From positions 60,698,001 to 60,762,000 of the forward strand of contig OX597830.1 of the NCBI GenBank assembly GCA_951406725.2: a stretch of 64,000 bases of DNA. Direction: 5' to 3'. Below the pieces are notes generated by a model. It had not been told where the DNA came from and did not search any database. It saw only the letters and a list, made by a program, of their open reading frames with translations. Origin of the DNA: Octopus vulgaris. Taxonomy: Eukaryota. The translations under genes and the position numbers were made by a program. Below, piece after piece: positions 266 to 62,757 of the stretch; position 1 is the first letter of the stretch; every line of letters begins with the position of its first letter.

Positions 266-516
266 ACCACAAATAAACTTATATATACACTTTTACATAT
301 AAATGTAAATGCTCTACCAAATAAAACTGCACTTCATTTCTTTAATCTCAGTCGAAACTGATGGGTGATACACAAGCACTGAACTATGAGTGCATTACAT
401 TTTGTAGCCGAAACAGCTGTAAGCTAATGAAGTTCATGGCATAATGTCTTATTCCCTTGCGGGTGTACGTGAAGCTTTACCAATCTAGAATATAATAGTG
501 TCACTCGAAGTAGAGT

Positions 517-1034
<518 letters not shown>

Positions 1035-5892: not shown

Positions 5893-6244
5893 GCAGGTGT
5901 GGCTGTGTGGTAAGAAGCTTACTTTCCAACCACATGGTTCTCGGTTCAGCTTCACTGCGCGGAAACATAGGCAAATGCCTTCTACTAGAGCCTCGAGCAA
6001 CCATATGTATATATGTGTGTGTGTTATTTTGTCTGTGGTTGACCTCTCCACCACCGCTTGACAACTGATGTTAGTGTGTTTATGTCCCCGTAACATAGCG
6101 GTTCGACAAAAGTGACTGATAGAATAAATACCAGGATTTAAAAAAGTAAGTACTGGGGTCAATTCGTTCGACTGAAACATTCTTTAGGACGATGCTCCAA
6201 CATGGCCGCAGTCTAATGACTGAAGCAAGTAAAAGATAAAAGAT
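5893..6244 (+). mobile_element. SINE family A (internal deletion)
   Basis: Head GCAGGTGTGGCTGTGTGGTAAGAAGCTT; tail CATGGCCGCAGTCTAATGACTGAAGCAAGTAAAAGATAAAAGATA. Confidence 0.88.
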
Positions 6245-7087
6245 AACTTATTCAGACTTAAAGGTTTAACATTTCGATTTTGCCAAAAAATTGCAAAATC
6301 TCATGTTTTTGATTTCTCCTACCATTTCTTGCTTCTTTTAAAATCTCTTTGTAATGTGTGTCTGGAAATGTGAACTAAATAACTTTGACCTCAAATATTT
6401 TTTTCAAAATTTCAAATAATTTTCGAAATCGAAATACACACGATTCGCACATCTGAGCGATACGTGACAAATGACAATCTTCGTTGTGTGTGCATGAGTG
6501 TGCGCTTGTGTGTTTGTAAGTGTATGTGTATACCAATTATAAACAGGGCTGCCTTAAAAGCATTATAGACTCCCAAGGAACTACTCTATGTGCTCATACC
6601 TTAAAAGGACACTTATGAAAGCTTTATATGTGTATGGGGAGAAGGTGTGTGTGTGTATGTATGTGAGTGAATAAATATGCATGTGTGTGTGTATTTGTTT
6701 GTACTTGTGTGTATGTGTGTGTACACAAATTATGGAAGTGTCTCTCGTCTTGTGTGTGTGTGGTGGGAAAAAATATTAACAATAGGAAAATTATAGAAAT
6801 CTGGTGTCACTACGCTATCTCTTGATCCGTGTTTCTTGCCTAGTAGAACAAGCAATTCTATACTTATCTTTAAAAAAAAAAAAATTCTAGTCTTTCTTCA
6901 ATAATTTATGTGTAATTTTCCTTTTTCGAACAAAATATAAGAAAGAAAATTGAAATGTTTCAAAATAAAAAGAAGAGATGCAAATTTTTTTGAAGAATTT
7001 TTACATTTTTTTGTTTCCCATAATTGTCGTCTTACACGCTGAAAACATATCCGAAGCAATTGTCAAAAAATATTTTTTTAAAGTTAC

Positions 7088-7495
7088 AGGCGCAGACGTG
7101 GCTGTGTGGTAAGAAACTTGCTTCCCAACCACATGGTTCCGGGTTCAGTCCCACTGCGTCGCACCTTGGGCAAGTGTCTTCTGCTATAGCTTCGGACAAA
7201 GCCTTGTTAGTGGATTTGGTAGACGAAAACGGAAAAAAGCCCGTCGTATATGTGTGTGTGTGTGTTTGTACCTATACGTGTGTGTCTTTGTGTTTGTCGC
7301 CCCACCATCGCTTGACAACCGGTTTTGGTGTGTTTATGCCCCCGTAACCTAGCGGTTCAGCAAAAGAGACTAACAAAATAAGTCCTAGGACTTAAAAATA
7401 ATTCCTGGTGTCGATTTGCTTGGCTGAAACCCCTCAAGATAATGTTCCAGCATGGCCGCAATCAAATGACTGAAACAAGTAAAAGAATAAAAGAA
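7088..7495 (+). mobile_element. SINE family A
   Basis: Head, internal (TG)n and tail all collinear with 54108-54540. Confidence 0.9.
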
Positions 7496-7639
7496 TGGTG
7501 TGCTTCGATCAGAACAATTCCGAACGAAGGATCAGTAGTTTTCTTTTATTTTCTTTGTTTGTTTCCGGGGATTATTTTTTCTTGATATTAGTGATTCGAA
7601 GATCTTTTACTTTAAATTTTAGATACTTCTTACAAAAAT

Positions 7640-26579: not shown

Positions 26580-27021
26580 GGCTCAGACCGTGGCTGTGTA
26601 GTAAGAAGTTTGCTTCCCAGCCCCACGGTTCCCACTGCGTGGCACCTTCGACAGGTGTCTTCTACTATAGCTTCTGTTTGACCAAAGCCTTGTGAGAGGA
26701 TCTGCTAGACGGAAACTGAAAGAAGACCGTCGTGAGTATGTGTATGTGTGCGTGTGTATGCGTTTGCGTCCATGCATGCGTATGTGTATGTTTGTGTGTG
26801 TGTTTGTCTGTCTCTGCGTTTGTCCCCCACCACCACTTGACAACCGGCATTGGTGTGCTTATTTCCCCGTAACTTAGCTGTTCGGCAAAAAAGCTGGATA
26901 GAATAAATACCAGACTTTAAAAAATTAAATCTCAGTGTCGATTCGCTCGACTAAAATACATCAAAGCGGTGCCCCAGCATGACCGTAGTCCAATGGCTGA
27001 AACAAGTGAAAGATAAAAGAT
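26580..27021 (+). mobile_element. SINE family A
   Basis: Head, internal (TG)n-rich tract and tail present; another head fragment lies on the minus strand at ~27035-27168. Confidence 0.88.
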
Positions 27022-27505
27022 ATTTGAAGGGCCTGCACAGTGTTTCCATCACAAGACTTTGGTCTACCAATGGCTATAGTAAACTACACTTGCCCAAGTT
27101 GATGCGCAGAGGGACTGAACCTGAAATTACAAAGTAAGCTACGTAACCACACAGCCATACCTGCGCCTGTATATGTAGGGAAAATCTCACAATGAGAAGA
27201 TGGGTGAATAATCATTGTCGTAAAAGTGGCTCAGTATAATGGTAAATGTTTAAGGGGTAATTTGGGAGGTGTGGGATACGGTAGAGAGAGAGACGAAACG
27301 TATATCAATAAGCTATACTGATCTTGCTTCATAGCCTGTTAAAATTAATGCTAAAGGGTATACAGAAGTGTTGTGTGTATGTGTACGTGTGTATATATAT
27401 ATGCATATATGTATGTATTTATATATGTATGGATGTATGTATATATGTATGCATGTATGTATGTATGTATGTATGTATGTATGTATGTATGTATGTATGT
27501 ATGTA

Positions 27506-35773: not shown

Positions 35774-36459
35774 TTGCAAGGAAGTTTGAAAGTCCTGAGA
35801 AGTTTCGACCTCTGCAGCCTTCATCGGACTGAAAGTTACTTTGGTTTTCTGTTTTACAAATTATTATTTACCGATTATCTTGGAGAAGGAACAATGCTGC
35901 TGCCGAATATATCTGCTGTAACAGCGTATTTCACTGGTTTATAAATGAATATCTTTATAGATAAGTTAATTGGATGGTAGGTAAAATTAATTGAGCAGAA
36001 GTAGTAGGGTAAGGAAGAGAAAAGAAAGATAAAGGAGGGGTCTAATACCAAGCGTTTATAGAGTGGGAGGTAAAAGGGGACGGATGGTAAATGCGTTTTT
36101 CTGGTTTGATATGTAAAGCCATGTTGAAACTGAGTGGTTACAGGAATTATTGATAGTTTATATATTATTGGTAGGGTGCGTTCGATGCTGTATGTAAACA
36201 GAGGTGATAGACGTGAGATGTGTATTGTAGTACAAGTCCAAGATAGGACAGAGACAGGTCACATTTAATGGGTTGTATTGGAGGTTTTGATGAATCTCGT
36301 CAGGTGATGCCTGTTACAAAATATATATATATATATATATATATCTATATATATACATACATACAACTCTACATACACATGTACCCATACACAGACACAT
36401 TCATACACATACTCATACACACATTCATTCATATATACATGCATACATACACTTTTCAA

Positions 36460-36665
36460 AATGTGACCGCGTGTGTACCGTTGGCGATTTTTTCCCTCTG
36501 TCTTCCCTTCCCTGGATCTTTCCTTCTCCTATGTTTCTGACGAAGAGCTCCGCTCGAAACGTTACACCCTCCTTCTTTCCTGAGCGTCCAATAATACTAT
36601 ACTTGTTCCACGTCCTCGCGTTGCTGTGTTTTCTCTTTGTGTTTTCATGTTTGGATTAACTTTAC
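36460..36665 (+). mobile_element. Short PLE-terminus-like element carrying a hammerhead, ending in (CATA)n
   Basis: Pyrimidine-rich leader, hammerhead and TTCCTGAGCGT; same layout as 22135-22329. Confidence 0.6.
36533..36567 (+). ncRNA. Minimal type-I hammerhead ribozyme motif
   Basis: GTTT-CTGACGA-A-GAGC(TCC)GCTC-GAAAC-GTT-ACAC; canonical core, palindromic AACGTT helix III, helix I 3/4 bp. Confidence 0.7.
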
Positions 36666-51651: not shown

Positions 51652-51693
51652 CACCTGTTGAAGGCTGGAGGGTATATCAGCCGAAACGTTGTG
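51652..51693 (+). ncRNA. Minimal hammerhead motif with A6->U change
   Basis: CAC-CTGTTGA-A-GGCTG(GAGGGTATAT)CAGCC-GAAAC-GTT-GTG, inside a ~155-bp element (51596-51750) next to (AAT)n(AAC)n. Confidence 0.6.
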
Positions 51694-52211
51694 TTAACAA
51701 CAAACAAGATGAGGACAAATATCCGTCAAATGTAAACAATATAAACGAGTACAATGTGTTGCATGGTCGGTCGAGCGATCTACCAGCGCAAATCAGTGAA
51801 CGTTGTTGACTGTATTTTACATAAAGCTATTGCTTTATAAGTTTATTCAGAGTTGTTTTTCTAAAGTATATCCCATTGATAAGAGCCAAGAAACTTGAGA
51901 CATCAATAGATGGCAGCCCTGAATAAAAAGAACACACCCTTTTACCATAAGAGAAATATCTTTCTCTACGGTAACTGCAGTTAATTTGCCTTTTAGTAGT
52001 TGAAATACGTCACAAATATATTTTAACTAACTTAAATCATATATAAGTTAGGTGTTAGTATATCTGGTTGGTAAAAAGCATTATACCAACTGAATAACCG
52101 TCTTTTCAACCAGTCTCTAACCTCTGACCTCGCCCTCACTATAAAAGATCTCATTACTTCCTTCTGCCTCTCTTTTACTGACACTAGCCATATCATCCGT
52201 ACCTCCTCTGT

Positions 52212-54314: not shown

Positions 54315-54540
54315 CATATATATATGTATGTCTGTATATGTTTTTGTGTGTTTGTCGCCCCAACATCGCTTAACAACCGATGCTGGTGTGTTTACGTCCC
54401 CGTAACTTAGCGGTTCGGCAAAAGAGGCCGATAGAATAAGTACTAGGCTTACAAAGAATAAGTCCTGGGGTCGATGTGCTCGACTAAAGGCGGTGCTCCA
54501 GCATGGCCGCAGTCAAATGACTGAAACAAGTAAAAGAGTA
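54108..54540 (+). mobile_element. SINE family A, full length
   Basis: Pol III-like head TGGCTGTGTGG...GGTTCAACCC, internal (TA)n after CCCGTCG, tail TGACTGAAACAAGTAAAAGAG. Confidence 0.93.
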
Positions 54541-54599
54541 TATATGTACGTACACACATACATAATTTTCATAAATAGCTGCTGTTTTACTAAAGTGAC

Positions 54600-59400: not shown

Positions 59401-59711
59401 TTTATAGAGGAAGTTCATTCGGAACGACAGAGGTCAAGATCATAACAGTAGAAGAAACAAAGAAAGAGTGTGTCTTTGAGCCGGTAGTTAATTAATGGTA
59501 GATGAGGGTTTTGTCTCTCAACTGAATCACTTACTTTTAGACACAGACGAGATTGGGGTCGACAACAACCCACAAATGTGCCGCTGCAGTGTTCTCAATG
59601 GGCTCGAAAGTTTTCTAAAATTTTTTCCAATTTCATTTATTTGTGGATCATTGAGCAGTCAGTACTTTTTAGATAGTTTTCTTTTTATGTCATATTTCTT
59701 TTATTTTTTTT

Positions 59712-59926
59712 AATTCTTTTACTTGTTTCAGTCATTTGACTGCGACCATGCTGGGGCAGTGCCTTGAAGAATTTTTTTAGTCGTATGAATCGACCCCACT
59801 ACTTATTTATTTTAATCCTGGCGCTTATTGTGTCGGACACGTTTGCCGAACAGCAAAATTACCGGGATATAAATATAGCAACACCGGTTGTCAAGGGAGG
59901 ATTATCACGTACACAAAGACACACAC

Positions 59927-59980: not shown

Positions 59981-60059
<79 letters not shown>

Positions 60060-60209
60060 TAAGAAAGTTTGTTTGGTAAAGCACGTGGGTGAATATATAA
60101 GAAAATAGTAAAGTGTGAAAAAACGACAGAAGGCTTAAATGTTAAAAGATATATATATTTGTGTCAAAATGTCTGGAGAATATTGGAAAAATTTTTTTTC
60201 CTTTCCTTA

Positions 60210-61354
60210 CCAGGAATCTCTATCAATCTTTGGAAACTCCCTCTCTCAATACATAAAAGAGAATTGGAAACGATTCCTAGACGATTGTTTCATTCTCTGG
60301 AATGAAAACATAGATAAACTCCTAAAATTTAAAAACCTATTGAACAGCATAAACCCAAATATACAGTTCACAATGGAATACAACCAAAAGGAGCTCCCGT
60401 TCTTGGATATACTAATTAAAAAAATTAACCTTAAAATAGAAACAGACATTTTTTACAAAGCCACAGACGCCAAACAATACCTTCTTTTTTAATTCATGCC
60501 ACCCAAGACACACTAAAACAAACATACCCTTCAACCTTGCAAGAAGGATATGCACAATAGTGTCAGAACAAAATACCAGGAACTTTAGACTGCAAGAACT
60601 CAAAAACACCCTAATTGACAGACATTACCCAGCTCAACTCATAGAGGATGGGATCAGACGTGCAACAGAAATCAACATAGAAACTTTAAGAAAAGTTCAA
60701 CACAACAACACACCTTCCCCGAAAATACTACCTTACATATCTACATACAACCCCAGAAACAAAGAAGCCTTCACCATCATCACCCAGAATTTACCAATAC
60801 TTCATAAAAACCCAAAATTAAGGGAAATTCTAAACATACACCAAATCATTAAAAGCTACAAACAGCCTAAATCACTTAAAAAGATTCTCACAAAGGCAAA
60901 ATTGTCTTCTAAAATTACGGATGCAAAAGTAAAAAAATGTGGTAGATCGAACTGTGCAACATGTCCTAACCTATTGGAAGGATCAGAATTCTTCTTTAAA
61001 GAAGGACAGAAATTTAAGATCAAATCTAACTTTACTTGTGCCTCTGAAAACATAATTTATGTTATTAAATGCTCGGGCTGCCACCAAGACTACGTGGGTT
61101 CCACGGGACTATCACTCAGGCGCAGATGCACACTGCATCGACAACAGATTGCATTCCCAGAATATAGAATGATACCTTTTAGTGAGCACATTGAGAAATG
61201 CGCAAAGCAACTACTGCCACAATTTTTAATCTTCCCATTTTACCAATGTGCTTTCGGATCATCAACACAAATGAGACTGAACAAGGAAACATTCTTCATT
61301 GAAAAGTACAAACCCAGACTCAACCATCCGAACATACTGACACAGAGAAATTAA
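60210..61354 (+). pseudogene. PLE reverse transcriptase C-half + GIY-YIG endonuclease (one frameshift near 60490)
   Basis: WKRFLDDCF, LPFLDILI, FYKATD..YL / SCHP, CGRSNCATC, FTCASENIIYVIKCSGCHQDYVGST..LRRRCTLH, ETFFIEKYKPRLN. Confidence 0.95.
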
Positions 61355-61490
61355 CAAGGAAATGGGAAAAAAATTTTTTAAGCGATTATCTCCCCTACAC
61401 CGGAAAAAATCACTCACTACCTCCCCTTATTTAGAAATCTCCTGGAAATAAAAACAACGATAAATCCATGCAATATAAACATAACGTCAC

Positions 61491-61530
61491 AAGAAATTTG
61501 AAAAGCTACACGCGAAACCGGTAATTTCTT
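61491..61530 (+). ncRNA. Minimal type-I hammerhead, U3-A8 core variant, in the PLE 3' terminus
   Basis: AAGAAAT-TTGAAAA-GC(TACAC)GC-GAAAC-CG-GTA-ATTTCTT; perfect 7-bp helix I, palindromic ACCGGT. Confidence 0.75.
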
Positions 61531-61844
61531 TAAAAATTTAAAATTATGTCATTTTAAGGAAAGGAAAAAAAATTTTTCCAATATTCTCCAGACATTTTGA
61601 CACAAATATATATATCTTTTAACATTTAAGCCTTCTGTCGTTTTTTCACACTTTACTATTTTCTTATATATATATATATATATACATATGTATATATACA
61701 TATATTAACACATATATGCATATATATATATACACATACATGCATGTGTGATTGTGTGTGCATGGGTGTGTGGGTGGGTGTGGGTGTGTGTCTGTATATA
61801 TTCCTATGTTTCAGCCCTGAGGCTGTGGCCATGCTGGATGACGA

Positions 61845-62167
61845 AAACATATTTACAAGTCCAGAAAAAACCGAACACCGATCTGGCTTAACTGATGATA
61901 GCAATGGAAATTGCTGAAACTAACGTCAGCCTTGAGAATTCTCTGTCAATATTTTTCAGACAATTATACTCCCTGATGGTGTATATGTTTTCATTCATGT
62001 GCGTTAACGACAGCATTAGACCATTTAGCGCTTATTTCTAGCAATGCAGTGCCTTTTAACACCCTGGTCAGATTTAATTATAATCATAATTCTCCTTTTT
62101 GGGGCTAAAAACAACAGTAGCGTCGTTCTCTATGGGATTGTCACATTTAGTTGGCAATTGTATTTTA

Positions 62168-62350: not shown

Positions 62351-62757
62351 AGCCAATGAACTTCTGCTACAACTCCAACCACCACTACCACCACGGTCAC
62401 TACTACTACTACGACCAACGGTCTCTACTTCTACTGCTTCTATTACAGTTAACGATCACTTTCACTTCTACAGCCAACGAATTCACAACGACCTCGAACC
62501 CACAAGAGTAAACAAGAGAGACAGAGACAGGCAAAAACAAGGAAAATGCCCCTTGTATTTGAATACTATGCAAATATTCTTTTAAAAAAATTTTCTTTTA
62601 ACTTTTCCAAAATTTAATTATTTTCCATACTTACAGTTGAAAAAGTCTCAATGACTGAAACCGGTACTGAAATGTTTTTTTTATAAAATTATGTTGCCAT
62701 TTTCTACCTTGACTTTTTTTCCATATATATCAACTCGTGTCTTCCTTTTCAACCTTA
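62204..62757 (+). mobile_element. PLE-terminus-like fragment with internal tandem units, ending in (TA)n
   Basis: Repeated AATGAACT.CTGCTACAACTCCAACCACCAC and CCAACGGTC units with (TAC)n; hammerhead at 62631-62672. Confidence 0.6.
62631..62672 (+). ncRNA. Minimal type-I hammerhead, U3-A8 core variant
   Basis: TTACAG-TTGAAAA-AGTC(TCAAT)GACT-GAAAC-CG-GTA-CTGAAA; helix I 5/6 bp, palindromic ACCGGT. Confidence 0.75.

Follow-up and report, generated by a model that had tools for sequence, protein, structure and literature searches.

A candidate minimal hammerhead ribozyme with a U-A pair at positions 3 and 8 in a young Penelope-like element of Octopus vulgaris

The locus described here raises the question of whether a motif whose core reads TTGAAAA, in place of the CUGANGA on which standard hammerhead searches rely, belongs to a genuine ribozyme lineage of a Penelope-like element (PLE), is the product of private mutation or loss of function, or merely reflects coincidence in AT-rich DNA. 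The motif lies in a 64-kb stretch of DNA, hereafter the window, at 61491..61530 of the plus strand, where it is read directly from the sequence, recovered by a structure scan as a minimal type I hammerhead with a GUA site (HHR1) and further documented by contig letters at T3 and A8. Helix I joins 61491-61497 to 61524-61530 through seven of seven Watson-Crick pairs, the UUGAAAA core at 61498-61504 places U3 at 61498, A8 at 61503 and A9 at 61504, and helix II consists of 2 bp (GC at 61505-06 with GC at 61512-13) around a 5-nt loop. Downstream, the GAAA stretch at 61514-17 supplies G12-A14 (61514-16) and A15.1 (61517), while helix III (61517-22) is a perfect 6-nt palindrome, ACCGGT, running from A15.1 to U16.1 (61522), with the predicted cleavage site after A17 at 61523. 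The core, the perfect 7-bp helix I, the 2-bp helix II, the GAAAC and the GUA named in a first-pass annotation of this DNA are all present in the sequence, and the positions of U3 and A8 support its proposal that the double change keeps the 3-8 pair; the palindrome, which is common to HHR1 and a second motif, HHR2, had gone without mention there.

A strict structural descriptor, drawn up after the motif had been seen and demanding a Watson-Crick 3-8 pair, a helix II of at least 2 bp, a palindromic helix III and a helix I of at least 3 bp, finds exactly two sites on both strands of the 64-kb window, HHR1 and HHR2. Sixty block-wise dinucleotide shuffles yielded a single match in total at this helix I length and none at 7 bp or more. 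A looser pattern free of helix tests gave seven matches in the window against 1.03 expected, and the five additional ones showed no convincing helices when inspected by eye. Rfam at gathering thresholds returned no match anywhere in the window, in agreement with the earlier expectation that CUGANGA searches would miss this core, and Cervera and De la Pena (2014, PMC4209133) acknowledge that their own first descriptor missed the U3-A8 variant.

The motif was also claimed to sit in a PLE, and for HHR1 the adjoining coding sequence supports this. A 5'-truncated PLE open reading frame (60208..61354, plus strand) encodes the end of a reverse transcriptase (RT), its thumb, a CX4CxxC linker plus a C-terminal endonuclease of GIY-YIG type with a CCHH motif, carries a single frameshift close to the run of T at 60485-60490 and ends 137 nt upstream of HHR1. 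Its two frames share 75% and 71% identity with a 659-aa protein, P0001, that carries RVT_1 and GIY-YIG domains; the GIY-YIG match of the window reading frame itself (E 0.012) falls below the curated cut-off. In an alignment of the window protein with 28 of its 56 matches, C525/C530/C533 and C569/C572/H591/H608 (P0001 numbering) are invariant in 29 of 29 sequences, and the named protein matches include mussel sequences at about 41%. The reading frame is followed by a 3' untranslated repeat, or pseudo-LTR, that contains HHR1 and ends in (TA)n (61355..61671, plus strand, outer limits approximate). Its distal part, 61555-61671, recurs as an inverted 5' copy at 60093..60209 of the minus strand (117/117 nt identical), beyond which a 35-nt 'tail' extension (60058..60092, minus strand) is followed by (TA)n, such that both ends of the insertion run into this dinucleotide repeat. 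Judged from the sequence, inverted arm, tail and (TA)n are the usual PLE arrangement, and the length of the extension fits the tail of 30-40 bp reported at PLE insertions (PMC8557442). The source of the inverted copy begins 25 nt downstream of HHR1; the arm therefore lacks a hammerhead and the insertion has only one HHR1. A search of the window gave no further copy of either the HHR1 or the HHR2 region, and a non-LTR retrozyme, that is, a non-coding tandem repeat with one hammerhead per unit, was rejected as a classification because HHR1 is single and follows a PLE reading frame.

The element shares with Neptune/Nematis-type EN+ PLEs (PMC8557442) an RT with C-terminal GIY-YIG endonuclease, a CX2-5CxxC linker, the CCHH motif, an inverted 5' segment with tail and a (TA)n target, and its layout points to that type, Neptune and Nematis being taken together. 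We observed in addition that the uncommon C at 61616, where T makes up 98-99% of family depth, is found in both arms of the inverted repeat (mirror position 60148), which were thus likely copied from one template in a single insertion event. Separately, the word TAACGTCAC at 61481-61490 also occurs at about 3542-3550 of L119 and about 1813-1838 of L120, two related loci described below, and in three of the six elements compared it is found no more than 90 nt upstream of the hammerhead core; an 8-mer of this kind with at least two G/C arose in 9 of 2000 shuffles in this post hoc comparison. The word resembles what we take to be a CRE-type promoter site and may be a conserved repeat-promoter element. 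The repeats of the window look, presumably, cephalopod-like.

How does HHR1 compare with hammerheads already described? By its sequence features it belongs with the PLE minimal hammerheads of the U3-A8 subtype already published, showing every testable defining feature but an optional extra nucleotide. U3 and A8 provide the Watson-Crick 3-8 core of minimal type I forms, G12-A13-A14-A15.1 and the U16.1-H17 site are represented by GAAA at 61514-17, U at 61522 and A at 61523, both helices I and II are present with G10.1-C11.1 at the base of the latter (A-U in HHR2), and the palindromic helix III permits a dimer, co-folding giving a 6-bp shared helix. The motif stands in the terminal repeat of its element, whereas HHR2 has no adjacent reading frame. 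The nucleotide usually, but not universally, inserted between A9 and 10.1 is absent from HHR1 and also from two rows of Fig. S3 of PMC4209133, so its absence does not exclude membership; the Marsupenaeus japonicus and Saccoglossus kowalevskii(2) hammerheads of that figure similarly have no nucleotide between A9 and helix II and a longer palindrome, but keep C3-G8.

The novelty of U3-A8 implied by the first-pass annotation does not hold. Natural U3-A8 covariation was reported by Perreault et al. (2011, PMC3088659), who state that such ribozymes had already proved active in vitro and described helices II of often only two pairs and palindromic helices III for dimers; their hammerheads resemble HHR1 in the compensatory 3-8 swap, the 2-bp helix II and the palindromic helix III, but come from a survey that spans all domains of life, which does not appear to tie the swap to PLEs of this clade. 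Within PLEs, Cervera and De la Pena (2014, PMC4209133) described U3-A8 in Cercyon elements of Schistosoma mansoni, with about 1,300 matches, and their Fig. S3 includes a family, Sm4, with the identical UUGAAAA core, as well as an S. japonicum counterpart with CUGAAGA. The Cercyon families Sm3 and Sm4 likewise place a U3-A8 minimal type I hammerhead with palindromic helix III in a PLE repeat, but belong to another host and PLE lineage, and the 7-bp helix I of HHR1 and its lack of an extra nucleotide after A9 are both unlike Cercyon; helix II has 2 bp in HHR1 and 6 bp in Sm4, the palindrome is 6 nt long in HHR1 and 4 in Cercyon, and N17 is an A able to pair with U3 in HHR1 but a U in Sm4 (PMC4209133). 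The helix length given for Schistosoma is 7-8 bp (PMC4209133), and the 2-bp helix II of HHR1 is shorter. A narrow literature search found no paper on hammerheads in the PLEs of octopus or other cephalopods. Work by Luense et al. in 2017 on small PLE hammerheads may already cover forms with a short helix II or with U3-A8.

Whether U3-A8 is the state of the family or a peculiarity of this copy was examined with contigs from 4 of 24 listed sequencing runs, aligned to 61150-61662 at a likeness of at least 80%, with differences listed from 4%; the comparison sampled the HHR1 region only. Run X1, which may be the window's own source, contributed 1570 contigs and run X13 contributed 1396, and the summed depth in the bin with the core reached 768,267 and 653,408, respectively, values that are no copy number, with most long contigs listed at about 40-120. 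The HHR1 family is very abundant. At T3 and A8, no other letter reaches 4% in X1 or X13, within the limits of contigs, which drop rare variants, and a CUGAAGA form, only two letters off the HHR1 core, would pass the likeness filter. The 23 substitution rows (22 places) and 6 indel rows recorded across 61150-61662 all fall outside 61465-61535. In X17, which has a third organism label, one contig spans HHR1 with no difference inside the motif; X6 gave one contig with five differing letters, only two of them listed. Absence of an alternative letter at 4% or more in the two deep runs indicates that U3-A8 is the state of the HHR1 family and not private decay.

The same data bear on age and selection. 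This copy departs from the majority at 6 (X1) and 8 (X13) of 513 places, or 1.2-1.6%, the X13 figure resting on 14 of the 22 places entered, with the remainder under half by inspection, and such small divergence marks it as young, as the annotation had claimed and as the fully identical 117-nt inverted arm also suggests. The annotation further held the core to be a selected lineage variant and no product of decay: the lineage variant is borne out for HHR1 by the contigs, selection is not, since an invariant 40-mer is expected with a probability of 0.16 given 22 variable places in 513, or of 0.28 within the 3' untranslated region. The 40-nt invariance of HHR1 was accordingly rejected as proof of selection, being within chance for so young a family, and fixation of U3-A8 fits inheritance from one master copy. 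Loose contig ends cluster at 61491/61492 and 61522/61530, an indication that more remote relatives align across the motif itself and depart from it at its borders. As separate observations, a loose end before 61512 in X13 (2 contigs) reads as a rare relative with G at position 8 and a different 5-nt loop II, and loose ends at 61522 (9 and 8 contigs) read as rare relatives with C instead of A just after U16.1; position 3 is hidden in both.

Wider relationships were sought through a related-locus scan of prokaryotic genome contigs, which gave 21 loci (L119-L139); these PLE-related sequences, filed as bacterial, are probably mis-binned host DNA, and several of them carry 3' hammerheads. The six closest (L119-L124) are near full-length at 37-44% identity, and L121 and L122 end before the hammerhead. 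Among the four with a readable 3' hammerhead, L119, L120 and L123 have C3-G8 and L124 has U3-A8, there with U17; a Watson-Crick 3-8 pair is present in 4/4, no mismatched state being seen, and all have a 6-nt palindromic helix III. The hammerheads of L120 (1852-1890) and L123 (2705-2740) were found by eye, because their helix II opens with a U-U opposition; that of L123 has no more than two pairs beyond this opposition and a loop of 5 nt, similar to the tiny helix II of HHR1. In quick trees of the C-terminal region (18 and 58 rows) the window element and L124 stand far apart, and in the 18-row set their grouping against the three C-G rows is rejected (p-AU 0.011), in a test run after the first tree had been seen and with a grouping set by hammerhead state. 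The well-supported branches of the 58-row tree, taken alone, are compatible with one origin of U3-A8. More than one 3-8 swap within this PLE clade is thus likely, not proven, on these phylogenies. A pattern scan of metagenome contigs gave helix I of at least 3 and helix II of at least 2 pairs in 2 of 118 loci (one C-G, one U-G); the four 3/8 combinations are about equally common in the other metagenome loci, as expected by chance, so the scan is not counted as evidence. None of nine candidates was confirmed in a related-locus scan of viral contigs.

The second U3-A8 minimal hammerhead, HHR2 (62634..62669, plus strand), was likewise found by sequence reading and structure scan, and its core at 62637-62643 has the same letters as that of HHR1; GAAACCGGTA is also common to both. 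It combines a helix I of only 3 bp, a 4-bp helix II (A10.1-U11.1), the ACCGGT palindrome and a GUA site, which confirms the reported recurrence of the double change with different helices I and II. In tblastn, PLE protein matches are confined to 60208-61327 and no PLE coding sequence adjoins HHR2. A common origin of the HHR1 and HHR2 flanks was rejected, their likeness not being significant (452 and 912 of 2000 shuffles equally good), and HHR2 is probably the stub of another family. A heterodimer of the two as the active form was rejected as well: despite the common ACCGGU, the crossed helix I arms mismatch at their first pair (U-C, G-A). The 5' arm of HHR2 helix I closes a pyrimidine-rich stretch (62620-62636) with CAG and resembles a 3' splice site; in Drosophila virilis Penelope, an intron ends at helix I (PMC4209133).

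Four more hammerhead-like motifs, with C3-G8 cores, occur at 61885-61930, 36530-36570 and 51655-51700 on the plus strand and at 35790-35835 on the minus strand, all damaged by disruption of helix I, by a change at A6 or U4, or by an unusual cleavage site; PLE-type hammerhead remnants thus number at least six in the window, and three lie within 1.2 kb. An abundant repeat that we take to be a SINE ends at 54495-54545 (plus strand) in a hairpin of 4 bp, after which most copies have GAAAC-NN-GUA, and similar ends lie near 26980-27025, 6210-6265 and 7465-7520 (plus strand) and near 59700-59750, 61790-61835 and 510-560 (minus strand). The hairpin stem covaries between copies (AGTC/GACT, AGCC/GGCT), and 19 of 23 letters of the end match the 3' half of HHR2 (0/2000 shuffles, for a pair picked after seeing it), while the first strand of the hammerhead core is absent. 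The tail could be borrowed from a PLE hammerhead or could be a convergent LINE-type stem-loop; a narrow literature search found no relevant paper on an octopus SINE with a PLE-like tail.

Taken as a functional element, HHR1 is in our judgement probably the type I minimal hammerhead of a PLE family that is abundant, was active recently and has U-A for C-G at 3-8; cleavage, after GUA, is predicted for the dimer alone. Folding points the same way: two co-folded copies give a double hammerhead at -15.5 kcal/mol vs -4.0 for the monomer, and the monomeric three-helix form costs +3.1 kcal/mol. By analogy with known PLE hammerheads, a full element with two repeats, or tandem copies, would bring two ACCGGU palindromes together in one common 6-bp helix III, with the helix I arms exchanged between the copies. 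U3 and A8 would form the pair that C3 and G8 form elsewhere, and the cut would free element RNA of unit length, for retrotransposition, from transcripts that are tandem or read through. The present insertion is likely inert in cis, as it has a single HHR1 and the helix I arms of HHR2 are mismatched to it. Metazoan PLE minimal hammerheads are described as inactive as monomers and weakly active as dimers (PMC4209133, PMC6765202), and even canonical PLE dimers cleave poorly in vitro (PMC4209133). A further brake may come from U3 itself: in the minimum-energy dimers of HHR1 and HHR2 at 37 C it is paired with A17 and not free for A8, an interaction that contributes some 0.7 kcal/mol per unit in HHR1 and is needed in the folding for HHR2 helix I to be stable at this temperature. 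Stacked atop helix I over the cut site, such a pair would slow cleavage, a prediction from a folding program that does not model the catalytic core. The arrangement resembles C3-G17, an inhibitory pair to which the weak activity of minimal hammerheads with G17 is generally ascribed (PMC3884650), and activity may thus be lower than with C3-G8. The searched terms of a narrow literature search gave no mention of A17 in the source on pairing with C3, and nothing usable among kinetic data on the 3-8 swap.

Three other explanations compete with a dimer-active ribozyme. That HHR1 is a chance match draws on the frequent occurrence of TTGAAAA and GAAA in DNA of about 35% GC and on the five unconvincing matches of the loose pattern, but none of the 60 shuffles gave a match with a helix I of 7 bp or more and the motif lies 137 nt past a PLE stop codon, where related elements have hammerheads; we give this reading practically no weight. 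Also very improbable is a CUGAAGA family in which this copy is decaying and has acquired both changes as mutations of its own. The G8 form at the X13 loose end (2 contigs) does occur among near relatives, and for HHR2 such an origin remains formally possible; neither C at 61498 nor G at 61503, however, reaches 4% of depth in X1 or X13, and this copy is only 6-8 of 513 places off the majority. T3 and A8 prevail in the family where the private-mutation reading, raised in the first-pass annotation itself, predicts CTGAAGA, and together with the small divergence this refutes it for HHR1, within the limits of contig data.

A fixed, non-cleaving relic is the more serious competitor, and one that we nonetheless consider unlikely: a master copy may have lost activity through the U3-A17 trap and the 2-bp helix II yet spread, or the sequence may be kept for a promoter or template-end role. 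The U3-A17 pair forms in the minimum-energy dimers of both motifs, its C3-G17 analogue is accepted as crippling (PMC3884650), Naiad PLEs attain a high copy number although they lack canonical hammerheads (PMC8557442), and the invariance of HHR1 does not exceed chance. Yet one would not expect a dead motif to retain the two compensatory letters together with a perfect helix I and palindrome; the 3-8 pair is Watson-Crick in all six compared hammerheads (HHR1, HHR2 and four relatives), the pair with A17 contributes little energy in HHR1, 2-bp helices II are common in natural hammerheads (PMC3088659), and diverged relatives still fit over the motif at the contig loose ends. A bolder version of the dimer-active ribozyme, which we find doubtful, would make U3-A8 with GUA a safety catch, in which U3 toggles between A17 (off) and A8 (on), is kept in two separate families to tune the cutting of element RNA, and stems from a swap that arose more than once in the clade; if true, a trapped state from which canonical hammerheads stay clear would here be fixed in nature.

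The 3-8 pair of the hammerhead was first seen in crystals, and the motif described here offers further natural covariation evidence for it. Searches limited to CUGANGA under-count PLE hammerheads, and the U3/A17 combination would allow an inexpensive check on whether the NUH rule for the cleavage site depends on which base occupies position 3. The accepted role of PLE hammerheads is unchanged by HHR1, and its significance is modest: it adds a very abundant, recently active PLE family in which U3-A8 prevails, and it suggests that the 3-8 pair has been swapped more than once within one PLE clade.
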